DNA from: an uncultured Candidatus Saccharibacteria bacterium | GTDB lineage: Bacteria; Patescibacteriota; Minisyncoccia; Phycocordibacterales; Phycocordibacteraceae | DNA length: 64,000 nt | Assembly (NCBI GenBank): GCA_964569655.1 | Contig: CAZMTN010000001.1 | Location: 64,542-128,541 of the forward strand | Reading direction: 5' to 3' | Shown: positions 1,305-49,790 of the stretch, in pieces | How positions within the stretch are numbered: position 1 is the first letter of the stretch | How the letters are laid out: the number at the start of each line of letters is the position of its first letter | Translations under genes and position numbers: made by a program | The notes under the pieces: model-generated | What the model was told of the DNA's origin: nothing | Seen by the model: the letters and a program-made list of their open reading frames with translations, nothing else | Database searches by the model: none

Positions 1305-1719
1305 GAGAACGTTCAGGAGGGTAGTGGAAGGGGAATGGAGCCGGGTCCCAGAGAAGTTCCGGGGGCGCATAGATAACGTCGCGCTCCTCATCGAGGATGA
1401 GCCGGACGAGGCGACGCGGAAGGAGGAGGCGCTCGAGGGAGGAGACACGCTCCTCGGCCTCTATCGCGGGATCCCGGCGAGCGAGCGCGGGGAACTGTAC
1501 GGCATCGGGATGACGTTGCCGGACACCATCACGCTCTACCGCCTCCCGCTCCTTGCGGAAGCGGAGCGGCTCAGGGAGGCGAGGAATCTTTCATACGAAG
1601 ACGCAGTGGCGGAAGCCGTGCGTGAGACCGTATGGCACGAGGTCGGCCACTACTTCGGCCTCCACGAGCACGAGGTGCAAGGAAGGGAGGACACGGGGAC
1701 CAACCATTTCACTATATAA
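1285..1719 (+). CDS. zincin-like metallopeptidase family protein (HExxH)
   Basis: HEVGHYFGLHEH zinc-binding motif near the C-terminus in a small soluble protein. Resembles the DUF1025/zincin_1 family. Confidence 0.55.
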   Translation: MPNLMDERTFRRVVEGEWSRVPEKFRGRIDNVALLIEDEPDEATRKEEALEGGDTLLGLYRGIPASERGELYGIGMTLPDTITLYRLPLLAEAERLREARNLSYEDAVAEAVRETVWHEVGHYFGLHEHEVQGREDTGTNHFTI

Positions 1720-1726
1720 AGCGATA

Positions 1727-1750
1727 GGCCGAACCATATATGGTTCGGCC
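1727..1750. terminator. perfect 24-nt palindrome between convergent genes (bidirectional terminator candidate)
   Basis: GGCCGAACCATATATGGTTCGGCC starts 8 nt after the stop at 1719 and ends 9 nt before the minus-strand stop at 1759. Confidence 0.55.
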
Positions 1751-1758
1751 GTGCGCGG

Positions 1759-1941
1759 TTATTCTTCGGGGAATCGGATGGCAGCGGCGGATCCTGCGAT
1801 CTGGGCGGCTGCTTCTGCGGAGATGCGGGCGCCAGTGAGGAATGCGACGGCGGTGCGTTCGAGTTCTACGAAGACCGGATGCATGAACGTGCTGAGGACG
1901 AGTAACATAAGGCCGAAACCGATAGCAGAGAATATAGGCAT
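1759..1941 (-). CDS. small hydrophobic hypothetical protein (about 60 aa)
   Basis: ATG at rc 1939-1941 (MPIFSAIGFGLMLLVLSTF...). Single TM segment. Divergent from msrA with a 118-nt intergenic region. The track's longer N-terminal extension looks spurious. Confidence 0.35.
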   Translation of the reverse strand: MPIFSAIGFGLMLLVLSTFMHPVFVELERTAVAFLTGARISAEAAAQIAGSAAAIRFPEE

Positions 1942-2059
1942 ATATTTTCTGTGATGAGTAAGTCGCGAGCGGATGCTTGCGACAAGATACCGAGGGGTAT
2001 CTTCAGGCAGGTGCCTCGTCCTCAGAAAGGGCTGACTGTCCGGATGGTACGATAGCCGC

Positions 2060-2527
2060 ATGGAGAAAGCAATCTTCGCGGCCGGCTGCTTCTGGGGCGT
2101 CGAGAAGGCGTTCCGGGACGTCTCGGGCGTCACGGACGCGGTGTCGGGCTATACGGCCGGCAGCACCGAACACCCGACGTACGAGCAGGTCTGTTCAGGC
2201 GCCACCGGGCATGCCGAAGCGGTGGAGGTCGCCTATGATCCGGAGCAGGTGAGCTACGAGCGCCTGGTCCGCCGTTTCTTCGCCATCCACGACCCGACGC
2301 AGCTCAACCGGCAGGGACCGGACGTAGGAACCCAGTACCGTTCCGGCATCTACTATTTGGATGATTCACAAAGGGAGATCGCCGAGAAGGTGAAGGTGGA
2401 GCTCCAGGAGCAGGCGTACCCGAAGACCGTCGTCACCGAGATCATGCCGGCCTCGACGTTCTGGAAGGCAGAAGAATACCATCAGCGGTACTTCGAGAAG
2501 CATCCGAACGCGGTGTGCCATATCTAG
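2060..2527 (+). CDS. msrA: peptide-methionine (S)-S-oxide reductase
   Basis: GCFWG active-site motif (AAGCFWGVE) and a full-length MsrA architecture of 155 aa. Confidence 0.9.
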   Translation: MEKAIFAAGCFWGVEKAFRDVSGVTDAVSGYTAGSTEHPTYEQVCSGATGHAEAVEVAYDPEQVSYERLVRRFFAIHDPTQLNRQGPDVGTQYRSGIYYLDDSQREIAEKVKVELQEQAYPKTVVTEIMPASTFWKAEEYHQRYFEKHPNAVCHI

Positions 2528-2528
2528 C

Positions 2529-4235
2529 ATGGAAGGATTGCCCGGAGCATCTAAGAAGGAACTGAAGGACGCGCCGGCGTTCATACGTCAGTTCTCTCGC
2601 GAGACTGACCCGAAGGGGCGGCAGGTCGTGGCCGAGCATATCCGGGATCAGCGCCGGATGAAGGGGCATGCGAAGGAGATGGTCAAGGCCAGAGGCGAGC
2701 AGGTCGCGGCCCTCAATAGAGCGCTCGATGAGTACAACAGCGGCTCGTATGTCGTGAAGGTACTCGATTATTTCAAGATGAAGAAAGTGCGGGAATCGCT
2801 GAAGATCGCGAAGCAGGAGAGGGAGGAGACTTCCACCATCTTTCGCGCATATAATAGCAATGAGCAGAACCAGAAGTATATCGACTCGTTCTATGAGCGC
2901 GAGAAGCGCCGCTGGGCTGAGACGCCGTATTCGAAGGAGGAGGTGAGCGCGCTTTTCACCGAGGAGCATCTCGCGTCTCTCTCTACAGAAGAGTACGGCC
3001 TCCTCATGAGGCGGTTCCCCTCCGAGATGGTGACGCACGTCACGCGGCAGGGCATCCGGGATCATAACGGCATGGCGTACCACTTCGAAGGGAAGAGCGA
3101 ATTTCATGACGGCTTCGAGAAGATGCTTGAGACCGGCCGTCTCCATGCGCCGCTTGCGGTTGCGCTTGCCGAAGCGCAGAAGCAGGATGCGCTTATCGGC
3201 CTCATAGGCCGGGAGGTGGGAGGTCCTCCGCAGAACAGGAAGCAGGCGCTCGAGGCGCTCGATCGCGAGCTCTACCGGTATCCGGACCGGAATGCGGCGC
3301 ACTTCGCCGCGGAGGAGGTAGCAGATCATTTCTACGGATCGGAGCGCGGGAACGAAATATTCGTGGCGTACCCGTCCGCGTTCATCGCGTCTCAGTACCG
3401 GTTCCAGAACCGGCTTACCGCGGGCAACGAGACCATGCATAACGACGTGTCTGTCTGGGATAAGGAGCAAAAGGGCATGGACCTCGATGCGGGGCTGGTC
3501 TTCATACCTAAGGACGCGCGCGTGGACGCGGCTACCGGTTCTCGCTACCACCTCACCCCGGACAAGGAGCCGAAGCCGAACGAGGCTATCCCGCTCATCA
3601 AGCAATGGATCAACCGACCTGAATTCGTGCCGCTCGCGGAGAGGATGACGGAAGCGCTCGCCGGGATACATGAGTCGGACATTCCATCGCCGGATGCGTG
3701 GGATTCGCTCAAGGAACATTCCTTCAAGACCCGGGGAGAGAAGGTTGCCGAGACCATGATCCCGCTGCGCGAAGAGCTTAAAGCGATGGGCATCACCGAC
3801 GTGCGCCTTCAGAGCGCGCTCCTCTCCTATGGGGCTTTCTTCTCCTTCGCGATCGGCTTAGGCAAGGACGACGCGGAGCACGCGATCGAGGAGGCGATCG
3901 ACTCGCTCCTGGAGCAGGAAGGGATCCGCTTCGTCGAGGCCAAGGATGCGATCTCATCGGAGGAGTACTGGGAACGGTATTTCGCGAAGCACCCGGACCG
4001 GAGGCCGTCGAAGATCATCTACTACAAGGGCGCTGACCCCAGCTTGGCGCTCCGGGTCTGGAAGAAGCAGAACGGCCTCAGCCTCAAGGCCGAGGACGAG
4101 ACTCTCGGCTTCGCAGAGCATCAGGTCAACGGTGAGCACCCGGCTGCCCAGCAGGGGAAGGGCCGCTTCGAATCCCTTGTGCGCGAAGCGATAGACCGGG
4201 AATTTCCTGCGGGAAAGGCTGGCGTGGTAGATTAG
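2529..4235 (+). CDS. uncharacterised soluble protein, 568 aa, no recognised domain
   Basis: ATG at 2529 lies 1 nt after the msrA stop (TAGcATGGAAGG). Balanced amino-acid composition unlike antisense artefacts, no TM segments, no catalytic motif I can recognise. The competing minus ORF 2442..3719 is R/L-rich junk. Confidence 0.6.
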   Translation: MEGLPGASKKELKDAPAFIRQFSRETDPKGRQVVAEHIRDQRRMKGHAKEMVKARGEQVAALNRALDEYNSGSYVVKVLDYFKMKKVRESLKIAKQEREETSTIFRAYNSNEQNQKYIDSFYEREKRRWAETPYSKEEVSALFTEEHLASLSTEEYGLLMRRFPSEMVTHVTRQGIRDHNGMAYHFEGKSEFHDGFEKMLETGRLHAPLAVALAEAQKQDALIGLIGREVGGPPQNRKQALEALDRELYRYPDRNAAHFAAEEVADHFYGSERGNEIFVAYPSAFIASQYRFQNRLTAGNETMHNDVSVWDKEQKGMDLDAGLVFIPKDARVDAATGSRYHLTPDKEPKPNEAIPLIKQWINRPEFVPLAERMTEALAGIHESDIPSPDAWDSLKEHSFKTRGEKVAETMIPLREELKAMGITDVRLQSALLSYGAFFSFAIGLGKDDAEHAIEEAIDSLLEQEGIRFVEAKDAISSEEYWERYFAKHPDRRPSKIIYYKGADPSLALRVWKKQNGLSLKAEDETLGFAEHQVNGEHPAAQQGKGRFESLVREAIDREFPAGKAGVVD

Positions 4236-11584: not shown

Positions 11585-13510
11585 TTACACCCCGATGAGC
11601 ACCGGGATCACCATCGGCGCCTTGTTGGTCCTCGTGAAGAGGAAGCCGGCAAGAGTATCCGAGAGCGCGTTCTTCACGTGATCGAGGTCCACCGGGTTCA
11701 TGCCCTGGGTCGTGTCCTCCACGGTCTTCTTGATGAGGAGACGCGCCTGGTTGAGCATCTCCTGGGATTCCCGGAGGTACACGAAACCGCGGGAGATGAT
11801 GTCCGGAGACTTGCGGAGCTTGCCGGTCTTCAGGTTCACGGTCGCGATGACCACGAACATGCCGTCCTTGGCGAGCATCTGACGGTCGCGGATGACGACC
11901 TCCTGCATGTCGCCGATGGAGAAGCCGTCCACGACGAGCGGGGAAGACGGCACCTTCTCCTTATGTACGAAGAGGCGCTCGCCATCGATGATGTCGATCA
12001 CCGTGCCGTTGTCTGGGATGATGATCTGATCCCGCGGGCGTCCTGCCTGCTCGACCGCCTTCGCGTGGCAGGAGAGCATCGAGTAGTAGCCGTAGCCCGG
12101 CATGAAGAACTTCGCATTGACCTGCTTGTTGATCCACACGAGCTCTCCCGTGTTGCCGTGTCCGGTCGAGTGGACGTCGCTCGAGCGGTAATGGATGAGC
12201 GTCGCACCGTTTCGGTAGAGGTTGTCCTTCAGGCGCTGCACCGAGATCTCGTTGCCCGGGATGACGGAAGACGAGAGGACGACGGTGTCGCGGTCGTTCA
12301 GCTGGATGGACTTGTGCTGCTTGGTCGCGATGCGCATGAGCGCCGCGAACTCCTCGCCCTGCGCGCCGGTCGCGAGGATGACGATCTTATCGGGCGGGTA
12401 GTCGCCGATCTCGGTCGACGGCACGAGCGTGCCCTTGTCGATCTTGAGGAGGCCGGTCTTCTGCGCGATCTCGAGGTTGGTCTTGATCGAGCGGCCCTCG
12501 GTGACGATCTTCTTGCCGAGCTTCTCGGAGATCTCGATGATCTTGATCATGCGCTCGAACTGGGACGCGAAGGTGCCGATGATGAGACGGCCAGGCACCG
12601 TCTTCACGATGTCCTCGAGCGTCTGGTTCACGCGGCGCTCCGGAATGGAGAAGCCGTCCTTCTCGGCGTTGGTCGAGTCCGCGATGAAGATGAGGTTCTT
12701 CTCCGCGCCGAGCGCGCCCCATTTCTTCTTCTCATGCTCTGCCGGGTCGCCGTTCTCATGGTCGAGCTTCAAGTCTCCCGTGAAGACGACATTGCCGTAC
12801 GGGGTCTCGATAGCGATGCCCATGGAATCCGGGATCGAGTGGGTGACCGGGAAGAACTTAACTTTGGTCGAGCCGACCGTGACCGAAGTCCCTACCTCGA
12901 CGACGACGAGCTGGGGAGCCGGCATGTCCGGGTACTCCTCCTGGCGCTTCGCGATCATGATCGCGGTCAGGTTCTGCGTATAGATCGGCGGATTGCCGAA
13001 GCGGTTCATGATGAACGGGATGCCGCCGATGTGGTCCAGGTGGCCGTGCGTGATGAAGACGGCGCGGACGCGGTCCGCGTTCATCTCGAGGTACTTGGTG
13101 TTCGGCAGGATGTAGTCGACGCCCGGGTTCGCGTCCTCGGACACGAACTGGAAGCCCGCATCGACGACGAAGATGTCGTTGCCGACTTCGACGGCGCACA
13201 TGTTGCGGCCCACTTCCTCCACGCCGCCGAGCGGAACGACGCGGACGACGTTCGGCGCGACAGGCTCGGGGATGTAATCCGCGGTCTTCTTGGCGGTCGG
13301 AGGACCTGGACGGCGGAGCATGCGGCGGATATCGCGGCTGCGCCCGCCTGGGCGGCCCCCTCCGCCACCGCCTCCTCGGCGATTGCGGTTACCGCCTCCT
13401 CGGCGCTCTCCTCCGCGATTCTCGCGGGGCGGGCGCCCGCTGTCTGGACGAGGGCCCATGGGGCGGGACGGCTGGTGGGGTGCCGGAGCCGGTGCTGGTG
13501 CTGGTGACAT
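11585..13510 (-). CDS. rnj: ribonuclease J (metallo-beta-lactamase/beta-CASP) with an N-terminal Pro/Ala- and Arg/Gly-rich extension of about 85 aa
   Basis: HxHxDH motif (ITHGHLDHIGG), beta-CASP region and RNase J C-terminal domain. The N-terminus is SPAPAPAPAPH...RGGERRGGGNRNRRGGGGGGGRPGGRSR. An alternative start at rc 13459 (MGPRPDSG) would remove the first 17 residues. Confidence 0.9.
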   Translation of the reverse strand: MSPAPAPAPAPHQPSRPMGPRPDSGRPPRENRGGERRGGGNRNRRGGGGGGGRPGGRSRDIRRMLRRPGPPTAKKTADYIPEPVAPNVVRVVPLGGVEEVGRNMCAVEVGNDIFVVDAGFQFVSEDANPGVDYILPNTKYLEMNADRVRAVFITHGHLDHIGGIPFIMNRFGNPPIYTQNLTAIMIAKRQEEYPDMPAPQLVVVEVGTSVTVGSTKVKFFPVTHSIPDSMGIAIETPYGNVVFTGDLKLDHENGDPAEHEKKKWGALGAEKNLIFIADSTNAEKDGFSIPERRVNQTLEDIVKTVPGRLIIGTFASQFERMIKIIEISEKLGKKIVTEGRSIKTNLEIAQKTGLLKIDKGTLVPSTEIGDYPPDKIVILATGAQGEEFAALMRIATKQHKSIQLNDRDTVVLSSSVIPGNEISVQRLKDNLYRNGATLIHYRSSDVHSTGHGNTGELVWINKQVNAKFFMPGYGYYSMLSCHAKAVEQAGRPRDQIIIPDNGTVIDIIDGERLFVHKEKVPSSPLVVDGFSIGDMQEVVIRDRQMLAKDGMFVVIATVNLKTGKLRKSPDIISRGFVYLRESQEMLNQARLLIKKTVEDTTQGMNPVDLDHVKNALSDTLAGFLFTRTNKAPMVIPVLIGV

Positions 13511-38217: not shown

Positions 38218-38254
38218 ACCTCTAATCTAGGTTCGACTCCTAGCGGGAGCACCA
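38180..38254 (+). tRNA. tRNA-Arg (anticodon CCT), CCA encoded
   Basis: GCTCCCG acceptor, anticodon loop TTCCTAA, T-arm CTAGGTTCGACTCCTAG, 3' CGGGAGC-A-CCA. Confidence 0.9.
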
Positions 38255-38274
38255 GTACGGTATAATCGAGCCAT

Positions 38275-38529
38275 ATGGACCAAGAACTCAAGGACCTCCT
38301 CGAAGAGAATCTCCGCGTCTCCCGGGAGACGAATAAGATATTGCGCTCCCTGCGCTCGCAGGCGCGCTGGAGCCTCGTAGGAAAGATCATCCTCTGGGTG
38401 GCGCTCATCATCGTGCCGCTCTACTTCCTCATCCCGTTCATCAACACCTATATGGACGTCCTCGAGAACTCTGCCCAGAGCAATCCGGACATCCAGAAGC
38501 TCATCGACCAGTACCGGGAGCTCCAGTAG
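38275..38529 (+). CDS. hypothetical small membrane protein (84 aa)
   Basis: Coiled N-terminus plus one TM (IILWVALIIVPLYFLIPF). TATAAT at 38261-38266 ends 8 nt before the ATG, suggesting a leaderless mRNA. Flanked by tRNA-Arg and tRNA-Phe. Confidence 0.4.
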   Translation: MDQELKDLLEENLRVSRETNKILRSLRSQARWSLVGKIILWVALIIVPLYFLIPFINTYMDVLENSAQSNPDIQKLIDQYRELQ

Positions 38530-38565: not shown

Positions 38566-38641
38566 GCTTGGATAGCTCAGTTGGTAGAGCACTTCCCTGA
38601 AGAGGAAGGGGTCCCCGGTTCGAGCCCGGGTCCAAGCACCA
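38566..38641 (+). tRNA. tRNA-Phe (anticodon GAA), CCA encoded
   Basis: GCTTGGA acceptor, D-arm GCTCAGTTGGTAGAGC, anticodon loop CTGAAGA, T-arm CCGGGTTCGAGCCCGGG hmm-free manual fold gives T-stem CCGGG/CCCGG, 3' TCCAAGC-A-CCA. Confidence 0.9.
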
Positions 38642-38662
38642 AAGGCAGGGTATAGTAGGGGA

Positions 38663-39736
38663 ATGAAGCAGTGGTTCGACTGGATCGCGCGCAACGAAGC
38701 GCGGCTCTCAACGGCGGTATTCGTCGCCGGTTTCGTCGTGGACAACGTGGTCTACACCCGCATCGACCTCCCGTGGGTGCACTCGTTCTTCGTCTCGTTC
38801 CTCATCGGGGCGGCCCTCTGCATACTTATCAGCCACGTGTTGCGCCACGAGCAGCCGGATGCGGCGCCCTCATACCGACGCCCATTCCATACGCTCGTCC
38901 CAATCGCTGGGCAGTTCTTTATCGGGGGACTTCTCTCCGGCTGCGTGATCTTTTACCTGAGGAGCGCCAGCCTCGTCACGAGCTGGCCCTTCCTCCTCAT
39001 TCTCGCGGTGGTCTTCATCGGCAACGAGGTCTTCAGGAAGTACCACCAGCGCCTTGAGTTCCAGGCCATGCTCTTCTTCTTCACGCTCTACGCGTACGCG
39101 ATCTTCGCCCTCCCGATCTCGTACGGCAAGATGGGGTCATTGGTATTCCTCGGCAGCGGGCTCGCCGCGGTCACCGTCTTCGCGGTCTTCCTGGGTCTCC
39201 TGTGGATCGTCGGATCGAAGCGGCTCATGCAGAGCATGAAGCGCATGCTCTTCGCTACCGTTGGCATCCTGATCATCGTGAACGCCTCCTACTTCGCCGG
39301 CATCCTCCCGCCGCTCCCGCTCGTGCTCAAGGACGCGGGCATCTACCACTCCCTCACTCGCGTTGGAGCGGACTACCAGGTAGGGGCCGAATCCCAGGAC
39401 TGGAACCCGCTTACGCGGACGCTCATCCATCACGTCCCAGGGCGCCCGCTCTACGCCTACAGCGCCGTATTCGCGCCCGTGAAGCTCAATACGCCCATCG
39501 TGCACCGCTGGCAGCGCTACGACGATGCGAGCGGCTGGGTGACCGTAGCGGCCCTCAGCTTCTCCATTTCGGGCGGCCGGGACGGGGGCTACCGCGGCTA
39601 CAGCATCGTGACCCCGACGGAGCCCGGCTACTGGCGCGTATCCATAGAGACGGAGAACGGCTCGGTTCTCGGGAAGGAGCGGTTCTACATAGAGAGCGTC
39701 CCGGCTCCGGTACCGGTGCACCTCGAGACGAAGTAA
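38663..39736 (+). CDS. polytopic membrane protein with a C-terminal beta-rich extracytoplasmic domain (DUF2914-like, tentative)
   Basis: Six or seven TM helices, then RWQRYDDASGWVTV...GYWRVSIETENGSVLGKERFYIE. TATAGT ends 6 nt before the ATG. Confidence 0.5.
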   Translation: MKQWFDWIARNEARLSTAVFVAGFVVDNVVYTRIDLPWVHSFFVSFLIGAALCILISHVLRHEQPDAAPSYRRPFHTLVPIAGQFFIGGLLSGCVIFYLRSASLVTSWPFLLILAVVFIGNEVFRKYHQRLEFQAMLFFFTLYAYAIFALPISYGKMGSLVFLGSGLAAVTVFAVFLGLLWIVGSKRLMQSMKRMLFATVGILIIVNASYFAGILPPLPLVLKDAGIYHSLTRVGADYQVGAESQDWNPLTRTLIHHVPGRPLYAYSAVFAPVKLNTPIVHRWQRYDDASGWVTVAALSFSISGGRDGGYRGYSIVTPTEPGYWRVSIETENGSVLGKERFYIESVPAPVPVHLETK

Positions 39737-43177: not shown

Positions 43178-44341
43178 CTAAGCCGTTTTCCCGAGGGAGA
43201 GATTGCCGTTCGCCTTGAGGGCGCCTGGGTCTGCGAAATCCTGCCTCAAGGCCCGATAGAAGCCAGCAAGCGCGATCATGATGGCGTTATCAGTAGTGAG
43301 GTCAGCGGACGGGATGCGCAGCGATACGTCGGTGAGCTGCTCCTCGAATACGCGACGGATATGGATGTTAGCGGAAACGCCGCCGCCAATGACTACGGTC
43401 CTCGCTCCCGTCTCCTCGACCGCACGCTCGGTCTTCTTGAGCAGCACTTCTGCTACCGCGTTCTCGAACTCATGCGCGACATGCTGCTTGTTCGCGTCCG
43501 GATTATTCTTCAGAAGGTAAAGCACGGCAGTCTTGAGGCCGGCGAAGGAGAAGTCGCAGGAATTCGAATCCAGCATCGGACGGGGAAGCGCGATCGGGTT
43601 GATTCCGCCGCACATGCGCGCATCTTCCGCGAGCTTCGAGATCTCCGGCCCGCCCGGGTACGGGAGCCCAAGCATGCGGGCGACCTTATCGAACGCTTCG
43701 CCGACAGCATCGTCTCGCGTCTGTCCGATCATCTCGTATGAAAGCCACTCCTTCATGAGCACGAGCTCCGTGTGCCCGCCGGAGATGAGGAGGGCGAGCA
43801 CAGGCATCTCGATATCCCTGATAGCGAGGCCTGTGTCAGTCTTCTTCGCGAGCGCGGAGAGTATGTGCCCCTCCATATGATTCACGGCGACAAGCGGCTT
43901 GTTCCAGAGTATCGAGAGCGCACGCGCGAAATTGATGCCCACCCAGAGCGCCGGCTCCAGTCCTGGACCTGCGGTTACCGCGATGGCGTCTATGTCCGGC
44001 ACCTCGCACTCCTCGACGAACTCGAAGAACGCAGCTTCGAGCCCCGGCTCCCGCTCAAGGAGCCGGATTATCTCCGCACGCGTTTCATCCGCGATGATCT
44101 GTTTGTCTTCATGCAAAAGCTCCGCTTCCTCGAGGGCGGCTTCAAGCAGCGGCACGAGGTTCTTCGCATGCTCGCGCTTGGCGAGCGCCGGGAAGACGCC
44201 GCCGTATTCCTTATGGATATCTATCTGGGAGAGGAGTGCGTTCCCGAGGACGCGGAACTCCGCAGCCTGCTCGTCGCCGGTCCCCTCAAGGATGGCGATC
44301 GCGGTCTCGTCGCAGGAGGTCTCTATCGCGAGGACTTTCAT
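43178..44341 (-). CDS. tsaD: tRNA N6-adenosine threonylcarbamoyltransferase TsaD (Kae1/YgjD family)
   Basis: MKVLAIETSCDETAIAIL start at rc 44339-44341, HxxH-type metal site (AVNHMEGHI) and the Kae1 fold. The ATG overlaps the upstream stop (ATGA). Confidence 0.9.
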   Translation of the reverse strand: MKVLAIETSCDETAIAILEGTGDEQAAEFRVLGNALLSQIDIHKEYGGVFPALAKREHAKNLVPLLEAALEEAELLHEDKQIIADETRAEIIRLLEREPGLEAAFFEFVEECEVPDIDAIAVTAGPGLEPALWVGINFARALSILWNKPLVAVNHMEGHILSALAKKTDTGLAIRDIEMPVLALLISGGHTELVLMKEWLSYEMIGQTRDDAVGEAFDKVARMLGLPYPGGPEISKLAEDARMCGGINPIALPRPMLDSNSCDFSFAGLKTAVLYLLKNNPDANKQHVAHEFENAVAEVLLKKTERAVEETGARTVVIGGGVSANIHIRRVFEEQLTDVSLRIPSADLTTDNAIMIALAGFYRALRQDFADPGALKANGNLSLGKTA

Positions 44342-45195
44342 CAGTCGTCGACAGGTTTGCCCTTGATGAACTTCCACGGCATCGGCTTATCGAAGCCGAG
44401 GCGGAAGCCGGCGCTGTTCGGGTGCCCGCTGCTGCCGTACTTGGCGGCGATGTCGGCGACGTTCACCGTCCCGTCCCCGCGGATGGAGACGCCGAGCCCT
44501 TCCGGGTGCGCGGACACGACGAGCGCGAACGGGCCCTTCTTCTTTGCGAGAATATTCCCGATGAGGGACTTGAGCGGCTTCAGCGGGTGCGCGGTAGCGA
44601 AGTAGACCTCGTGACCCTCGAATTCGACGAGCTCCGCGTTCTCGACCGCGATCTCAGCGAGGAGCTCGAAGTACTCCTTGTACGCGTTCGCGACCCCGAG
44701 GAGCTCTTTGCGGCTCGAATCGCCGGCGAGCGCCTTCGCGACGCTATCCCAGAACGCGAACGAGAGCGGATGCGCGGTGAGGTACGTGAGTACCGCGCGG
44801 GTATCTTGCAGTTTGAAACGGAAGAGATCATCGTCCTCGACGTAGCGGATCAGCTCCGGGATCTCGGTATCCGGATGGAAATACGCCCACGCGATGGACG
44901 CGCCCGAGCGGTTCGGGTCGTAGACATGGTTCGGGTAGGAGGTGGCGACGCTCTCCACGCCCTCGTGGTGGTCGAGCACGGTGAAGGACGCCGCCTGGGC
45001 GGCGATAGCGTCCATCTGATCCTTCGGGAAGCAGAAGTCGATCATATAGACATCCTTTCCAGAGACGTCTCCCTCGAACGGCTTGCCGTGCTTCTGCGGC
45101 AGGTATTCCGCCTCGTCCCCGAACTTCTTCCAGGCGCTGTATGCGCCCCCGAATCCGTCTGGGCAGTCTCCGTGGTAGAGGATCGCGGTCTTCAT
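44341..45195 (-). CDS. DHH/DHHA1 phosphoesterase (NrnA-like nanoRNase/pAp phosphatase)
   Basis: ATG at rc 45193-45195 (MKTAILYHGDCPDGFGG). DHH motif VLDHHEG and DHHA1 GGHPNSAG. The long 5' extension of the track ORF (to 45735) is R-rich artefact. Confidence 0.8.
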   Translation of the reverse strand: MKTAILYHGDCPDGFGGAYSAWKKFGDEAEYLPQKHGKPFEGDVSGKDVYMIDFCFPKDQMDAIAAQAASFTVLDHHEGVESVATSYPNHVYDPNRSGASIAWAYFHPDTEIPELIRYVEDDDLFRFKLQDTRAVLTYLTAHPLSFAFWDSVAKALAGDSSRKELLGVANAYKEYFELLAEIAVENAELVEFEGHEVYFATAHPLKPLKSLIGNILAKKKGPFALVVSAHPEGLGVSIRGDGTVNVADIAAKYGSSGHPNSAGFRLGFDKPMPWKFIKGKPVDD

Positions 45196-45203
45196 ATCGA
45201 TAA

Positions 45204-46067
45204 CTATCGCACGAACCGTACGTAAATGCCGGCGGGTATGACGCGTTCGGAGCCACTCTCCTTGATAAGGAGCTCTCCCGATTCTCCCTCCACCTTCCCG
45301 AAGACGCTCTCCACCGCCTGCGCGAAGGAGCGGGACGCGTAGCCTGCCGCATACCCGTTCACGAGGAAGAATGCGCCCGGCTTCTCGGCAAGGAGCTCCT
45401 TCAGTACCGGAAGGAGTTCCGGCAGATGCTCCTCGATGTGCCACACCTCTCCTTTGGCTCCGCGGCCGAACGCAGGCGGATCGAGGATGATGCCGTCGTA
45501 CTTCACGCCGCGGCGCACTTCGCGTTTCGCGAAGGCGAGCGCGTCGTCGAGGATCCAGCGGATGCTGTCTCCCGGGATTCCGGAGAGTGCAGCGTTCTCC
45601 TTCGCCCACGTGATCGACTGCTTCGACGCGTCCACGTGCGTTACGAATGCGCCTGCTTTCGCGGCCGCTACGCTCGCGATGCCGGTGTACCCGAAGAGGT
45701 TCAGTACCTGCGGCTTCTCGAGCTTCTGGATGCATCCCGTCGCCCAGGCCCAGTTAGGCGCCTGCTCGGGGAAGATGCCGGTATGTTTGAAGGCCGTGAG
45801 CTTCGCATGCGCGCGGATATCGCCGTAGGGGACTTCCCAAGACTCAGGAACCGCTTTGCGCTTATCCCACGATCCGCTCTTATCGCGGAACATGAAGGCA
45901 GCATGCGCGGCTTCCCAGGCTTCCGGATCCCGCTTCAGCCAGACCGCCTGGGTCTCAGGACGAGCGACGATCACCTCGCCGAAACGCTCGAGCTTCATGT
46001 TGTCTCCGGAATCGAGGAGCTCGTACCCGGCAGAGGTCTCAGTGATGAGGTGCTTGTCGTAGATCAT
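45204..46067 (-). CDS. class I SAM-dependent rRNA methyltransferase (RlmI/RlmK-like, PF10672-type)
   Basis: SAM-binding VLNLFGYTGIASVAAAKAGA...HVDAS and DPPAFG motifs. Confidence 0.7.
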   Translation of the reverse strand: MIYDKHLITETSAGYELLDSGDNMKLERFGEVIVARPETQAVWLKRDPEAWEAAHAAFMFRDKSGSWDKRKAVPESWEVPYGDIRAHAKLTAFKHTGIFPEQAPNWAWATGCIQKLEKPQVLNLFGYTGIASVAAAKAGAFVTHVDASKQSITWAKENAALSGIPGDSIRWILDDALAFAKREVRRGVKYDGIILDPPAFGRGAKGEVWHIEEHLPELLPVLKELLAEKPGAFFLVNGYAAGYASRSFAQAVESVFGKVEGESGELLIKESGSERVIPAGIYVRFVR

Positions 46068-46825
46068 AGGGACTCAGGATGGCGCGCGCTCCACGCGAAG
46101 AAGACGATGCCCGCTGATACGGCGGCATTCAGGGACTCGGTGCGCGCATGCATCGGGATGGAGAGCGTGATATCGCAGGCCTCGAGCGTCTTCTCTCGGA
46201 TGCCTTTGCCCTCGTTGCCGATCACGATCGCGGTCGGCGCATCGAATTGCTCGTCGGAGAGCTTCACCGAGCCCTCCATGTCGAGGCCATAGATCCAGAA
46301 GCCCTTCTTCTTCAGCACTTCGAGCGTGTTATTCACGTTCCCGATGGAGACGAGCGGGATGCGGAAGGTCATGCCGGCTGAGGTCTTGATGACCGTGCCC
46401 GTAATGCCTGCTTGGTTGTGTTCCGGGATGAGGACGCCTGCGAAGCCGAACGCCGCCGCCGAGCGGATGATGGCGCCTACGTTATGCGGGTCCTGCACTT
46501 CGCCGAGTACCGCGACGGCCGGCTGCTTAGACATATCGAGCGTGTCCAAGAAGTCGTGCAGGGAAAGGAGGAGCTTGCTCGGGTCGATGGTGGCGATGAC
46601 GCCCTGGTGGCTCGCGTCGCGTCCGACGGCATCGGTAGCTGCGCCCTTCGAGAGCTCCGCTACGGGGATATCGTGCTCCTTGAGGAGCGCGTGGAGCTCG
46701 GGATCGGTGATGTCCGGCGCGAGGAACGCCTTCTTCACGACGTCCGGACGGCTCAAAAGCGCCTCGGCGAGGGCATGCTTTCCGTAGAGATACACCTTCT
46801 CGCTCCGACCCTCTTTCGATTTCAT
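46064..46825 (-). CDS. SpoU/TrmH-family RNA 2'-O-methyltransferase (RlmB-like)
   Basis: SPOUT motifs (LGEVQDPHNVGAIIRSAAAFG, IVIGNEGKGIR, SLNAAVSAGIVFF). The true ATG (MKSKEGRS...) at rc 46823-46825 shares its A with the CCA of tRNA-Val. The track's 5' extension is the tRNA itself. Confidence 0.8.
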   Translation of the reverse strand: MKSKEGRSEKVYLYGKHALAEALLSRPDVVKKAFLAPDITDPELHALLKEHDIPVAELSKGAATDAVGRDASHQGVIATIDPSKLLLSLHDFLDTLDMSKQPAVAVLGEVQDPHNVGAIIRSAAAFGFAGVLIPEHNQAGITGTVIKTSAGMTFRIPLVSIGNVNNTLEVLKKKGFWIYGLDMEGSVKLSDEQFDAPTAIVIGNEGKGIREKTLEACDITLSIPMHARTESLNAAVSAGIVFFAWSARHPESL

Positions 46826-46900
46826 GGTGCGCGGTGAGGGACTTGAACCCCCGACATCTTCAACGTCAATGAAGCGCTCTACCAACTGAGCTAACCGCGC
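46825..46900 (-). tRNA. tRNA-Val (anticodon GAC), CCA encoded
   Basis: Minus strand reads GCGCGGTTAGCTCAGTTGGTAGAGCGCTTCATTGACGTTGAAGATGTCGGGGGTTCAAGTCCCTCACCGCGCACCA, which gives a canonical cloverleaf. Confidence 0.9.
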
Positions 46901-46946
46901 ATTGCTGTCGCAGAATACCGCGATTCACGTTACTATTCAACCCACC

Positions 46947-47567
46947 ATGGAAATCGTGAAAGTCGAGGAACTAGGCATAGACGCGGCTGCTGCCCGGGCC
47001 GCCGACGTGATATCTAAGGGCGGCATCGTAGCCTACCCGACCGATACCCTGTATGGCCTCGGCGTGAACGCGCTCGATGCAGACGCCCTCAGGCGTCTCA
47101 AGGAGCTCAAAGGCCGGGAAGAAGGGAAGCCCATCTCCATCATGGTCCCGAGTGCCGAAGCTATCTCCTGGCACGCGGAGCTCACGCCAGGAGCCCGCGT
47201 GCTCGCGGAGAAATTCCTTCCGGGGCCGCTCACGCTCGTCGTGCCGGCGAAGGATCATCTCCCGAAGGAGCTCGCGCCGGACGGCACCGTCGGCATCCGC
47301 GTGCCAGATGACGCCTTCACTCGAGCGTTCTCCGCCATGTCCGAGTACCCGATCACCTCGACCTCCGCGAACCTGGCCGGCATGGAGACGCCGCATACGG
47401 TCAGAGACCTCCTCGCGCACTTCGGCCCGAAGATGGGCGATATCGACCTCTATATAGATGACGGGCCGCGCAGCGGAGGCGTCGGCTCGACCGTCGTTTC
47501 CTGTCTTTCTACGTTGCCGGTGCTGCTGCGCGAGGGCGCTATCTCGAAGAAGGACTTAGGGCTATAG
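46947..47567 (+). CDS. tsaC: L-threonylcarbamoyladenylate synthase (TsaC/YrdC/Sua5 family)
   Basis: YrdC domain (GGIVAYPTDTLYGLGVNALDADALRRL ... STSANLAG). ATG at 46947 inside track ORF 46902..47567. Confidence 0.85.
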   Translation: MEIVKVEELGIDAAAARAADVISKGGIVAYPTDTLYGLGVNALDADALRRLKELKGREEGKPISIMVPSAEAISWHAELTPGARVLAEKFLPGPLTLVVPAKDHLPKELAPDGTVGIRVPDDAFTRAFSAMSEYPITSTSANLAGMETPHTVRDLLAHFGPKMGDIDLYIDDGPRSGGVGSTVVSCLSTLPVLLREGAISKKDLGL

Positions 47568-47573
47568 GATGGT

Positions 47574-47819
47574 ATGCTATCGACCATGAAAACCAACCTT
47601 ATCGCCGCCATCTGCCTGGCTTTCGGAGTGCTGTTCTCTTTCTCCATCGGTACCGCGCTCCTGTTCGGGTATATGTACTTCGTTGAAGGCGATCCTATGA
47701 CAGGCATTATCGCGCTCATTGCTCTCGGCATCATAGCTATCGGACTGATCATCATGAGCTTCAGCAAGAAAGCTCGGGAGGTTGTGAACGTCGCGATCGA
47801 GCACGTCGGCATCGGTTAG
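47574..47819 (+). CDS. hypothetical small membrane protein (81 aa, 2 TM)
   Basis: Two hydrophobic helices. No known domain. Confidence 0.35.
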   Translation: MLSTMKTNLIAAICLAFGVLFSFSIGTALLFGYMYFVEGDPMTGIIALIALGIIAIGLIIMSFSKKAREVVNVAIEHVGIG

Positions 47820-48112
47820 TACATCCGGTCGCGGATAGTAGCAAGCGCTGCAGTGACCGCAGAGTCAGTGATCCTCGTAAAGCGGGGAAGGCGTCTGCCG
47901 TCAACTTCAACCTCTTCGAAGAACATCTCGAGCGGGCGCGCCTGGTACTTCGCGGGCGGCATCCATTCGCTCTCGTAGAGTGGGCGGTAGAGGACCATCA
48001 GGGACTTATCCTCGGTGTTCCGCGCGATGCCGACCACCTCGTAGGTGTAATTGTGCGGCTTGCCGCTCGGGTCGTGCTTGTAGTGCGTATAGAAACCGGG
48101 CTCAGGGTGCAT
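47816..48112 (-). CDS. DUF1653-family protein
   Basis: YTHYKHDPSGKPHNYTYEVVGIARNTEDKSLMVLYRPLY matches the DUF1653 signature. 98 aa. Confidence 0.6.
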   Translation of the reverse strand: MHPEPGFYTHYKHDPSGKPHNYTYEVVGIARNTEDKSLMVLYRPLYESEWMPPAKYQARPLEMFFEEVEVDGRRLPRFTRITDSAVTAALATIRDRMY

Positions 48113-48124
48113 AAGAATATTCTA

Positions 48125-48742
48125 TCAAGCGTAATTCTCGCCATCCACGGACCGCCAGAGGTAGAGCGACGCCACCGTCCGATGCGGCGCCCACTGCTTT
48201 CCGATCTTCTCCATCTGCTTGACCGTAGGCAGCTTCTTGAACCCGTAGATCCTCTGAAACCCTTTCTGGATGGCGAGGTCTCCGGTAGGGAGTACGTCGG
48301 GGCGCAACAGCGTGAACATGAGGAACATGTCCGCTGACCAGCGGCCGATGCCTTTCACTACGATGAGATGCGCGCGTATCTCCTCGTCTGTCATATTCGG
48401 GAACTTCCGCGGATTGATGGTGCCGTCGAGGAACCGCTCGGCGAGGTCCCGCACGTATACCACCTTAGAGTTCGAGAGCCCAGCAGTGCGCAGCTGCTCC
48501 GGACTGAGCTTGACCAGCTCATTGGGAGAGAGCCTGCCGCCTGGAAAAAGCGCCTTGAAGCGCTTCATGATCGCGGCAGCGGCTTTGCCGGACACCTGCT
48601 GGTAGATGATCGCCTGGGCCAGGGCAGCGAACGCCTGCTTCGGATACGCGTACGGCTTAAGCGTGAGCTTCTTCATCGCTTCGCGCATCCTCAGATCCTT
48701 GCGAAGATGCCGATGAGCTTCTTCCAGCGCGTAATCCTTCAT
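48125..48742 (-). CDS. DNA-3-methyladenine glycosylase II-like HhH-GPD protein (AlkA/Mag-like)
   Basis: HhH-GPD motifs (LVKLSPEQLRTAGLSNSKVVYVRDLA ... VKGIGRWSADMFLMFTL ... D). ATG (MKDYALEE...) at rc 48740-48742 shares its A with the CCA of tRNA-Ser(CGA). The track's 5' extension is the tRNA. Confidence 0.7.
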   Translation of the reverse strand: MKDYALEEAHRHLRKDLRMREAMKKLTLKPYAYPKQAFAALAQAIIYQQVSGKAAAAIMKRFKALFPGGRLSPNELVKLSPEQLRTAGLSNSKVVYVRDLAERFLDGTINPRKFPNMTDEEIRAHLIVVKGIGRWSADMFLMFTLLRPDVLPTGDLAIQKGFQRIYGFKKLPTVKQMEKIGKQWAPHRTVASLYLWRSVDGENYA

Positions 48743-48831
48743 GGCGGAGAGGGAGGGATTCGAACCCTCGAGGAACTTTCGCCCCTGCCGGTTTTCGAAA
48801 CCGGTGCATTCGACCACTCTGCCACCTCTCC
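48742..48831 (-). tRNA. tRNA-Ser (anticodon CGA), type II, CCA encoded
   Basis: Minus strand reads GGAGAGGTGGCAGAGTGGTCGAATGCACCGGTTTCGAAAACCGGCAGGGGCGAAAGTTCCTCGAGGGTTCGAATCCCTCCCTCTCCGCCA. The acceptor and T-arm are identical to tRNA-Ser(GGA) at 20193. Confidence 0.9.
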
Positions 48832-49153
48832 AGTTCCCGCTATCCTAGCACCCGTCTCATATAAATGCGATACGAGCCCCGGAAGGGGCTCGTAGGGGCT
48901 TGCTTACGCAGGCGCCTGTTCGGTCGGAGCAGCTTCGGTCTCCGGAGCCGCTGGCTCTGCAGCAGGGTCCATCGGCACTGCTGCCGGGTTGGTGTTCTCT
49001 TCCATGGTTGATGTGGGAGGCATGCGGGTTCATGAGAATCCGCACGACGCTCTGTATAAGCTGGCAAAGGTTCGACCTTGTAGCTAAGTATACCAGAAGA
49101 TGCCGGATTCCTAGATGGCGCTTTCGAAGAAAGATGCTATGGTTTCTCCACAC

Positions 49154-49225
49154 GGCCTCATCGTCTAACGGTTAGGACAGCGCCCTTTCACGGCGTAAAT
49201 CGGGGTTCGATTCCCCGTGGGGTCA
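49154..49225 (+). tRNA. tRNA-Glu (anticodon TTC)
   Basis: GGCCTCATCGTCTAACGGTTAGGACAGCGCCCTTTCACGGCGTAAATCGGGGTTCGATTCCCCGTGGGGTCA. The acceptor has two G-U pairs. CCA is not encoded. Confidence 0.85.
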
Positions 49226-49280
49226 CATACACAGCACCGCAAGCATTCATTGATGCTTGAAAGGTATACTTTCGCTAAGC

Positions 49281-49790
49281 ATGAGGATCTATATAACCGG
49301 AGTCTCTGGCACAGGGAAGACAACAACTATAGAAAAGTTGAGGGAGAGGGGCATCCATACTATCGACCTGGATGGCGTGCCTGGCCTGTGCCGCTGGGTG
49401 CACAAGGTGACGAAGGAAACCCACCTCTGGCACCCAGGTATCGGGCAGGAATTCTTCGACAGCCATGACTACATCTGCGACAAACAGAGGCTCATCGAGC
49501 TCATGGGCAGCGGCAACGCTGTAGTTGCAGGCCTGGCGGACAATCAGTCGGGATTTTTCGACTTGTTCGATAAGCTCTTCCTTTTCCATTGCGACGAGGA
49601 GATCTTCCTGCAGCGCGTGCGCGACCGGACGAACCATGACTTTGGAAAGGATGACTCTGAGCAGGAAATGATCCGGGGGTGGTACAAGGAATTCGAACAG
49701 GAGATGCTGGATGCGGGAGCCATCTCTGTAGATGCATCCCAGCCCACGGACGTGATCGTTGCGCAGCTGCTGAGCGAGCTTGCTTCCTAA
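49281..49790 (+). CDS. P-loop NTPase (AAA_33/AAA_18-like putative kinase)
   Basis: Walker A MRIYITGVSGTGKTTT and Walker B-like LFLFHCDEE. ATG at 49281, with TATACT 10 nt upstream. The track start at 49257 is a TTG. Confidence 0.6.
   Translation: MRIYITGVSGTGKTTTIEKLRERGIHTIDLDGVPGLCRWVHKVTKETHLWHPGIGQEFFDSHDYICDKQRLIELMGSGNAVVAGLADNQSGFFDLFDKLFLFHCDEEIFLQRVRDRTNHDFGKDDSEQEMIRGWYKEFEQEMLDAGAISVDASQPTDVIVAQLLSELAS

Follow-up and report, generated by a model that had tools for sequence, protein, structure and literature searches.

Mitochondrial tRNA punctuation was reportedly described by Ojala, Montoya and Attardi in 1981. In this system the excision of tRNAs by endonucleases sets the ends of mRNAs, which carry leaders of only a few (0–3) nucleotides and no Shine-Dalgarno sequence (PMC3790967). 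Here we analyse a bacterial gene junction of similar build. In a 64,000-nucleotide stretch of DNA (the window) from an uncultured Candidatus Saccharibacteria bacterium (GenBank assembly GCA_964569655.1, contig CAZMTN010000001.1), the gene for tRNA-Ser(CGA) ends on the nucleotide that begins the start codon of a 3-methyladenine DNA glycosylase gene. By analogy, mitochondrial tRNA punctuation is the closest counterpart that we can name, since in both cases tRNA genes directly abut coding sequences on the same strand. The two differ in that the DNA here belongs to a bacterium with many separate promoters and no single genome-length polycistronic transcript, the tRNA has a promoter of its own, and processing is inferred. 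Moreover, tRNAs would set only some mRNA 5′ ends (18/66 sampled junctions), and 3′ ends are not punctuated.

Other described systems resemble the junction in part. Leaderless genes of bacteria lack a Shine-Dalgarno sequence and have their AUG at the mRNA 5′ end or within a few nucleotides of it (PMC6028130, PMC4007540, PMC4633059). In the architecture that GeneMarkS-2 calls group C, found mainly in Actinobacteria and Deinococcus-Thermus, a Pribnow box lies 6–8 nucleotides before the start codon and 25–50% of operons are leaderless (PMC6028130). The genome studied here has a similar pattern, a TANNNT hexamer shortly before the ATG. However, the 5′ end in group C is a transcription start that bears a 5′-triphosphate, whereas the glycosylase junction and a second one at tRNA-Val, described below, have no −10 box, so their mRNA 5′ ends would need RNA cleavage and would carry a 5′-monophosphate. 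Leaderless mRNA has also been attributed to an endonucleolytic cut near the AUG, made by MazF in Escherichia coli (Vesper et al. 2011, as relayed in PMC3848588 and PMC4681348). The route proposed below likewise has leaderless mRNA arise after transcription by such a cut, but MazF, a toxin induced by stress, cleaves ACA sites to give a 5′-OH, whereas the proposed cut would be constitutive, part of tRNA maturation and set by tRNA structure. The MazF-made leaderless mRNAs are themselves disputed.

Transcripts that join a tRNA to a second RNA are known as well. The E. coli thrU-tyrU-glyT-thrT-tufB operon joins tRNAs to an mRNA, and the tufB mRNA keeps a long leader that contains a Shine-Dalgarno sequence. 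Dicistronic RNAs in which a tRNA is linked to a small nucleolar RNA (plants, Nanoarchaeum) or to a small RNA (Thermococcus) are released by RNase Z (PMC4247193). As in those RNAs, a tRNA and a second functional RNA would here be made from one promoter and parted by tRNA 3′ processing. The partners there are non-coding, however, and a start codon touches the tRNA neither in them nor in the tufB operon. In the open-access literature, where absence is no proof, searches turned up no account of bacterial genes that abut a tRNA or owe a leaderless mRNA to processing; nor did we find in it a report of leaderless genes or group C architecture in the candidate phyla radiation (CPR; Patescibacteria).

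On the minus strand the junction reads ...GGTTCGAATCCCTCCCTCTCCGCCATGAAGGATTAC, and the 3′ end of the tRNA gene divides as ...GGTTCGAATCCCTCCCTCTCCG-CCA-TGAAGGATTAC (the tRNA end also being given as ...CTCTCCG-CCA). The acceptor stem is fully paired (7/7 base pairs), as expected of a type II tRNA-Ser, and the cloverleaf and variable arm are both present in the predicted centroid fold of the precursor. The Rfam tRNA model RF00005 matches positions 48745..48831 with 60.7 bits (gathering score 29) and ends at the discriminator base, G 48745. If spacing is expressed as d, the number of nucleotides between the discriminator base and the ATG, then d = 2 and the two genes overlap by exactly one nucleotide, A 48742. 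Thus, the same-strand, direct abutment of coding sequence to tRNA gene that characterizes tRNA punctuation is present at the glycosylase gene. The preliminary description of this DNA had claimed the shared nucleotide, its recurrence at a tRNA-Val and a methyltransferase 2 kb away, and open reading frames (ORFs) drawn through both tRNAs. ARAGORN, Rfam and the coordinates agree on the first, A 46825 is shared between the tRNA-Val CCA and the methyltransferase ATG, and the mechanical ORF list indeed runs from a GTG at the glycosylase (48125..48817, 230 amino acids) and from a TTG at the methyltransferase (46064..46885, 273 amino acids). No second tRNA-Ser(CGA) gene was seen in the window. A match of the Rfam small RNA sX4 over the tRNA (39.5 bits; gathering score 70) was dismissed as a sub-threshold, tRNA-driven chance match.

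The glycosylase matches Pfam PF00730 with 64.5 bits (cut-off 26.2), and its closest solved structures are 2h56 from Bacillus halodurans, 2yg8/2yg9 (AlkA2 of Deinococcus radiodurans) and 3s6i (Mag1 of Schizosaccharomyces pombe), with E-values of 1e-28 to 1e-32. The hairpin GIG (G131, G133) and the catalytic D155 are invariant in an alignment of 33 homologues, almost all of 203–207 amino acids, which places the protein among HhH-GPD, AlkA-type enzymes. By contrast, the model for E. coli AlkA orthologues (NCBIfam NF007641) gives 34.6 bits (cut-off 229) and aligns with residues 72–198 only, the protein being a short enzyme of the Mag1/AlkA2 type. The earlier label 'AlkA-like' is therefore right for the superfamily and wrong if read as orthology to E. 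coli AlkA. Because M1 is almost invariant in the 33 homologues, A9, L13 and K15 are invariant or nearly so, and residues 9–15 are kept across them, sequence conservation identifies the ATG at 48742 as the true start codon. Starts at Met20 or Met24 were rejected in view of the conserved residues 1–15. The few homologues that are longer owe this to spurious extensions of the N-terminus, such as the GEVAEWSKAP...SPSPPTM of protein P0090, which is a translated tRNA-Ser.

Relatives were sampled as 171 loci (L001–L171) around glycosylase homologues, picked by the glycosylase and not by the genes that follow tRNAs, and every tRNA 3′ flank in them was analysed. The tRNA-Ser-CCATG-glycosylase junction is kept in L100, whose glycosylase is 70% identical. 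There the tRNA acceptor stem has a compensated change (GGAAAGG/CCTTTCC), and the tRNA promoter and an upstream hairpin are the same.

The second case in the window is the tRNA-Val(GAC) gene, which ends ...ACCGCGCACCATGAAATCG and divides as ...ACCGCGCA-CCA-TGAAATCG. Its partner encodes an RlmB-like 2′-O-methyltransferase that scores 204 bits against TIGR00186 (cut-off 160). The N-termini of this protein are equal in length in the window (MKSKEGRSEKVYLYG), L081 (MKSREFKKEKVYLYG) and L001 (MKPRDKRSEKVYIYG), and the pattern MKSxExxxEKVYLYG, first ten residues included, is kept even in L001, where the gene has its own promoter. On this comparison the ATG at 46825 is the true start codon. An alternative start at the GTG of codon 11 (GGAGCGAGAAG-GTG, with GGAG 7 nucleotides upstream) was rejected, as the codon is GTA in L081. 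The tRNA heads a minus-strand operon for RNA modification (region 43178-47567) that comprises genes for the RlmB-like protein, an RlmI/K-like S-adenosylmethionine-dependent methyltransferase, a DHH/DHHA1 protein and TsaD, and that is divergent from tsaC (46947-47567, plus strand). L082 and L085 are without both methyltransferases, and in them tRNA-Val is joined straight to the DHH gene.

To place these junctions in their genomic setting, start contexts were collected from a crude set of non-overlapping ORFs, and TANNNT hexamers 5–9 nucleotides before the ATG were compared with those before internal in-frame ATGs. Such a hexamer precedes 19 of the 56 genes that start with ATG in the window, the distances peaking sharply at 6 nucleotides, against 1.7% of internal ATGs; the values for four close relatives are 32/79 genes and 2.8%. 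Examples in the window are the genes at 2060, 4240, 8351, 20896, 33766, 40977 (minus strand) and 50343. Shine-Dalgarno-like tetramers peak at 5–7 nucleotides in a smaller set of genes. The TANNNT pattern is, judged from sequence, the signature of leaderless transcription, so that translation with a minimal leader or none would be routine in this organism. The spacings of N6–N10 found genome-wide further suggest that leaders of 0–4 nucleotides are tolerated in the lineage. The best protein matches of the window are to metagenome-assembled genomes of Patescibacteria, Paceibacterota and Minisyncoccia; its G+C content is 61%, and predicted ORFs cover about 91% of it. Among Parcubacteria, about half of the 16S rRNA genes lack an anti-Shine-Dalgarno motif (PMC9297842). 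The glycosylase gene of the window departs from the group C pattern that the 19 window genes and most glycosylase orthologues display: upstream of it lie the tRNA acceptor stem and T-arm, with neither a TANNNT hexamer nor a Shine-Dalgarno-like motif.

A comparison of orthologous genes links the two kinds of start. Most glycosylase orthologues have a −10 box at N6–8 before the ATG, namely TACGAT in L082, TACCAT in L085, TATGAT in L099, TATAGT in L117, L119 and L008, TAGAAT in L089, TATAAT in L003 and TACTAT in L002. The place of the box is taken by a tRNA 3′ end in the window, in L100, in the L005/L170 clade (53% identity; tRNA-Ser(cga), G|CCCACA-ATG) and in L012, a metagenome-assembled genome labelled Chloroflexi (tRNA-Val(tac), A|CCTGTC-ATG). 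A candidate in L006, in which the glycosylase would follow a truncated tRNA (...CACACCGCCAATG), was rejected because the upstream 76 nucleotides are not tRNA-like. The RlmB-like gene follows tRNA-Val through CCATG in the window and in L081, whereas in L001 the tRNA is followed by 40 nucleotides with TATAAT N6 and then the RlmB-like ATG. A DHH-family gene abuts tRNA-Val in L082 (again CCATG), L085 (CCAG-ATG) and L087 (CTCAC-ATG), with d = 2, 4 and 5, and has its own promoter in L083. Finally, the DUF2914 gene after tRNA-Phe is preceded by TATAGT N6 in the window (d = 24), by TATAAT N6 in L085 (d = 28) and by a −10 box in L083, but abuts the tRNA in L082 (GCA|C|ATG, d = 1); its N-terminus is the same in the window, L085 and L082. 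In at least four gene families, then, a −10 box set on the ATG and an adjoining tRNA 3′ end are, by their sequences, interchangeable. This comparison with relatives makes the link between tRNA 3′ ends and leaderless-type expression well supported.

In the window itself, tRNA-Phe(gaa) is followed by the DUF2914 gene (357 amino acids, 38663-39736), which starts 24 nucleotides past the discriminator with TATAGT N6 between (38639-38665, plus strand), and tRNA-Arg(cct) by an 84-amino-acid gene that has no Pfam match and starts 23 nucleotides past the discriminator with TATAAT N8 between (38252-38277, plus strand). The crude ORF picker mis-called this tRNA-Arg/tRNA-Phe region.

The frequency of abutment was then assessed over 66 distinct tRNA 3′ junctions by locating the first ATG to start an ORF 80 codons or more in length. 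That ATG lies at d = 0–8 in 18/66 junctions, and the next seven 9-nucleotide bins hold 1, 4, 4, 1, 4, 3 and 5. This excess has a binomial P of 4e-7, or of 1e-4 when orthologous junctions are collapsed (12/29). The distribution is bimodal, with one group at d ≤ 8 and another at d = 22–32, nearly all of the latter having TANNNT at N6–8; the range expected of Shine-Dalgarno-led starts, d = 9–21, holds a single junction (d = 11). A −10-like motif is absent from 17 of the 18 abutting junctions, and so, in 17 of 18, is a Shine-Dalgarno-like motif. The ORFs at these junctions are real genes, with Pfam matches starting at residues 2–10 (CYTH 2–172, DUF2200, DAGK, DHH, Vut_1 and NUDIX). Besides the pairs described above, tRNA-Ser(cga) abuts CYTH, NUDIX and alternative oxidase genes, tRNA-Glu abuts Vut_1 and DUF2200 genes, and tRNA-Cys an ORF of 325 amino acids. 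The alternative oxidase gene, in L168, is joined as Ser(cga)-CCAAAC-ATG, and the gene caller had run it through the tRNA. As a consequence this gene (1610-2533, minus strand) was called at 307 instead of 230 amino acids; together with P0090 it exemplifies the spurious N-terminal extensions that public protein sets contain where a coding sequence is called through an abutting tRNA.

The junctions themselves vary in form. Spacings of 1–8 nucleotides occur (CATG, CCATG, CACATG, CCAATG, CAAAATG, CCAGATG, CTCACATG and CCCACAATG), no gene abuts at d = 0, the minimum being C|ATG, and the tRNA gene is without an encoded CCA in roughly half of the cases. Because of this range and these CCA-less cases, the overlap of CCA and ATG is not an essential feature. 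In the window, two of the four CCA-bearing tRNA genes continue as CCATG, where TG is expected 0.06 times per tRNA (P = 0.02). Over all relatives the count is 6/26 CCA-bearing junctions with a naive P of 0.004, these junctions not being phylogenetically independent and reflecting few independent events. The wider excess of starts at d = 0–8 given above is statistically much stronger. Three of the seven tRNA genes in the window lack an encoded CCA, and the full CCA is encoded in only 26 of 68 distinct tRNA genes of the window and the relatives' loci. Position 74 was nevertheless C in all 68, a T in the tRNA-Glu of L168 being a later exception, and this pattern may reflect a constraint, specific to the lineage, that acts on 3′ processing or on CCA repair. 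Taken together, the anatomy of the junctions and the comparative pattern are solid.

Promoters of this lineage appear from their sequences to consist of a −10 element only, and those of the two tRNAs were therefore identified by comparison with relatives; a strict two-hexamer sigma-70 scan and a terminator scan of 45900-49400 gave no promoter and no relevant terminator. Upstream of tRNA-Ser, positions 48850-48842 read TGCTAGGAT, identically in L100, and the motif aaTGCTAGGAT/TGCTAGAAT is kept 5′ of tRNA-Ser(cga) in L100, L081, L082, L005, L007, L016 and L107. The TATTCTgcga context of tRNA-Val recurs in L081 and L001. A GC-rich hairpin just upstream of the tRNA-Ser promoter is kept in L100 with a different loop and is probably the terminator of a small ORF that precedes it. 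The run of T residues of this hairpin is weak, and the terminator scan made no call there. The small ORF (MEENTNPAAVPMDPAAEPAAPETEAAPTEQAPA; 48904-49005, minus strand) encodes 33 amino acids rich in Pro, Ala and Glu, has no Pfam match and lies between tRNA-Glu and the tRNA-Ser promoter. Its counterpart in L100 is MDENTNPAAMPTEPAAEPATPETEAAPAEEAAA, followed by the same hairpin with a changed loop, and a conserved TATACT is found about 100 nucleotides upstream. The divergent pair tRNA-Ser(cga)/tRNA-Glu(ttc) (48742-49226) is conserved among relatives in varying orientation. The tRNA-Ser faces the glycosylase in the window, L100 and L005, and the pair is inverted and kilobases away from the glycosylase in L081–L083, where tRNA-Ser abuts other genes, such as the CYTH gene in L083.

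Co-transcription with the tRNA followed by endonucleolytic 3′ processing, giving a nearly leaderless mRNA, is in our view the best explanation of these junctions, and on the strength of the sequences we place it somewhat above an even chance. The tRNA-Ser(CGA) and glycosylase genes would form one transcription unit driven by the conserved extended −10 promoter of the tRNA. Because no free nucleotide separates the genes, neither a terminator nor a promoter nor a ribosome-binding site can fit between them, and polymerase that starts at the promoter of the tRNA must therefore run on into the glycosylase gene. RNase P would take off a 5′ leader of about 4 nucleotides, and an RNase Z-type endonuclease would cut at or just past the discriminator (G73 or C74). 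Were it to cut behind the encoded CCA instead, the fragment would begin 5′-UG... and the AUG would be lost, so that the cut must fall at or near the discriminator. A CCA-adding enzyme would then give the tRNA body its CCA, new or restored, and the downstream fragment, 5′-P-(C)CAUGAAGGAU..., would serve as an mRNA with a leader of 1–2 nucleotides. Across all abutting junctions a cut near the discriminator would give leaders of 1–8 nucleotides, which are not strictly leaderless. Translation would proceed by the Shine-Dalgarno-independent, 5′-end-dependent initiation of the leaderless type, as for about one third of the genes of the organism, and the tRNA-Val unit with its RlmB-like-headed operon would follow the same route. 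CCA-less tRNA genes imply endonucleolytic 3′ processing of the RNase Z type and a CCA-adding enzyme, and thus the three such genes among the seven of the window indicate that both must exist in this genome. In predicted folds the first 14 or so nucleotides past the CCA are unpaired, and the fold of the tRNA is unaffected by what lies downstream. Only this unpaired 5′ end is used here, the fold energies of the junction RNAs being at the level of shuffled sequences (z = 0.0 to 0.4; −0.45 for the tRNA-Val precursor). The earlier suggestion that tRNA processing yields translatable leaderless mRNAs thus gains from recurrence, conservation and the leaderless-type starts of the lineage, but needs amending in that the cut must precede the CCA end. 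Likewise, the fusion of CCA to ATG, which it had stressed, is not special, given d = 1–8.

The shared A 48742 permits either an upstream cut with CCA repair, as just set out, or an either/or outcome for each transcript. In the latter, a cut past the CCA, such as archaeal and Thermotoga-type RNase Z enzymes make, would give a finished tRNA and an unusable 5′-UG fragment. Glycosylase would then come only from a minority of transcripts, those still uncut or cut at a point further upstream, and the overlap would throttle the repair enzyme, keeping it scarce compared with the tRNA. RNase Z cleavage past the CCA of CCA-containing precursors is documented (PMC7479834), the shared A bars an unrepaired CCA-ended tRNA and an AUG-bearing mRNA from arising from one transcript, and in many relatives the CCA of tRNA-Val stays encoded regardless of the downstream gene. 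However, about half of the abutting junctions have no CCA (CATG, CACATG, CAAAATG, CTCACATG), so that at these a cut near the discriminator is the only route and spares the AUG, and d drifts between 1 and 8 among orthologous junctions, contrary to selection for overlap; we consider this outcome unlikely. Less probable again is that the uncut precursor is translated by internal initiation at an AUG lying 3′ of a folded tRNA that acts as a structured 5′ untranslated region. The AUG and the next 14 or so nucleotides are predicted to be single-stranded, and Shine-Dalgarno-independent initiation is plausible where many Parcubacteria lack the anti-Shine-Dalgarno (PMC9297842), yet from ribosome structure a folded tRNA of about 90 nucleotides, 2 nucleotides from the P-site codon, would be expected to fill the mRNA exit path of the 30S subunit. 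Moreover, the tRNA needs excision to function and comes from the sole tRNA-Ser(CGA) gene seen in the window, and promoters that place the start of transcription on the ATG are equivalent to abutting tRNA ends, which points to a need for a free 5′ end.

A promoter lying within the tRNA gene could instead produce a separate primary transcript with a short leader and leave tRNA processing uninvolved. The −10-only promoters of this lineage need little sequence, and the abutting tRNA-Glu junction of L007 does have TAGGGT 5 nucleotides before its ATG; but no TANNNT lies 4–11 nucleotides before the ATG in the other 17 of 18 abutting junctions, both window cases included. The region is, in addition, bound to the sequence of the tRNA T-arm and acceptor stem (TTCGAATCCCTCCCTCTCCGCC), and the sigma-70 scan of 45900-49400 was empty, which leaves such a promoter very unlikely. 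Hardest of all to credit is that abutment is a neutral by-product of compaction or comes from mis-assigned starts (Met20/Met24 of the glycosylase; the GTG at codon 11 of the RlmB-like gene), a reading that is largely refuted. The genomes are compact, as the ORF coverage of about 91% indicates, and the RlmB-like GTG has its GGAG 7 nucleotides upstream. Against this stand the strong over-representation of abutment relative to neighbouring distance bins, the conservation of M1 and residues 9–15 in the 33 glycosylase homologues, the replacement of the GTG by GTA in L081, and the retention of the RlmB-like N-terminus, including in L001 with TATAAT N6 before the same ATG. An origin of the variable genes after tRNAs at att integration sites was also rejected: relatives share the glycosylase-DUF1653-tsaC-tRNA-Val block in synteny, and in about 13 independent pairings of genes integration would not leave the start codon 1–8 nucleotides past the end of the tRNA.

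Several points weigh against processing at the tRNA 3′ end as the source of the mRNA. Co-transcription, the cleavage site, the nuclease, CCA repair and the mode of initiation are all deduced from sequence, and the tRNA sample comes from regions syntenic with one gene and represents few families (Ser, Val, Glu, Phe, Arg, Gly and Cys). Leaderless translation in E. coli is lowered by added 5′ nucleotides, and tolerance of a 2-nucleotide leader in this lineage is an assumption, which promoter spacings of N7–N10 back indirectly. In Bacillus subtilis an encoded CCA is a strong inhibitor of RNase Z, and the archaeal enzymes cut past the CCA of CCA-containing precursors, in which case the AUG would lose its A (PMC7479834). 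No RNase Z was found by its HxHxDH motif in the 64-kb window and in 7–8 of the relatives' loci, the rest of the genome lying outside this search, which returned only RNase J and one other ORF of metallo-beta-lactamase fold. CPR genomes generally keep RNase J, RNase III and PNPase (PMC12641178). A 5′-monophosphate end would be a substrate for the 5′-exonuclease activity of RNase J.

The coordinates of the features are collected in Table 1. The gene downstream of the glycosylase, which encodes a DUF1653 protein, has the upstream context cgcttgatagaatattcttATG, and its spacing of 6 nucleotides falls in the genome-wide peak class; this gene probably has its own leaderless-type promoter, overlapping the glycosylase stop codon. 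The synteny of the two genes is kept in L081–L083, L164 and L166. A hydrophobic ORF of 81 amino acids without a Pfam match (47574-47819, plus strand) lies between the DUF1653 gene and tsaC and overlaps the 3′ end of the former by a few bases.

Table 1. Positions of the genes and sequence elements of the window that are discussed in the text
Feature	Position	Strand	Remarks
tRNA-Ser(CGA) gene	48742..48831	-	ARAGORN; type II, long variable arm, encoded CCA 48744-48742
Glycosylase ATG	48740..48742	-	A 48742 is also A76 of the tRNA CCA
HhH-GPD 3-methyladenine DNA glycosylase, Mag1/AlkA2-like, 205 amino acids	48125..48742	-	PF00730
Extended -10 of tRNA-Ser, TG-c-TAGGAT	48842..48850	-	TG 48850-48849, TAGGAT 48847-48842; 10 nucleotides before tRNA +1
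GC-rich hairpin cgagcccc-ttcc-ggggctcg	48873..48892	-	Just upstream of the tRNA-Ser promoter
tRNA-Val(GAC) gene with encoded CCA	46825..46900	-	ARAGORN; A 46825 shared with the RlmB-like ATG
RlmB-like SpoU-family RNA 2′-O-methyltransferase, 253 amino acids	46064..46825	-	TIGR00186; Pfam SpoU_methylase and SpoU_sub_bind
Candidate -10 box of tRNA-Val, TATTCT	46912..46917	-	11 nucleotides before the tRNA 5′ end
Extended -10 box, glycosylase TGA stop (48127-48125) and TAGAAT (48124-48119)	48119..48127	-	6 nucleotides before the DUF1653 ATG
DUF1653 gene	47816..48112	-	Pfam PF07866; conserved downstream partner of the glycosylase
RNase J gene	11585-13510	-	Beta-CASP, RNase_J_C and metallo-beta-lactamase domains; only HxHxDH nuclease of the window

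We extend the proposal beyond the window tentatively, holding it a little short of an even chance that tRNA 3′ maturation in Paceibacteria, and perhaps widely in Patescibacteria, acts as a routine, mitochondria-like punctuation at about a quarter of the sampled tRNA genes (18/66). If this is true, a tRNA would serve as both a promoter-proximal module and a processing signal, and the mRNA would become translatable only once the tRNA is cut off, making repair and RNA-modification genes depend for their expression on the transcription and maturation of tRNAs. A lineage-specific cleavage site 0–7 nucleotides before the AUG would then be reflected in C74 being encoded almost everywhere while C75-A76 is often lost, and metatranscriptomes should show 5′-monophosphate ends at position 73/74 of specific tRNAs. 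Patescibacteria would join the heavily leaderless lineages, which matters for gene calling where ORFs are extended through tRNAs. Their leaderless-type mRNAs would come from tRNA processing as well as from promoters, a simple way for streamlined genomes to do without promoters and ribosome-binding sites. Such a bacterial counterpart of mitochondrial punctuation would also bear on how the mitochondrial system could evolve from ordinary bacterial components.

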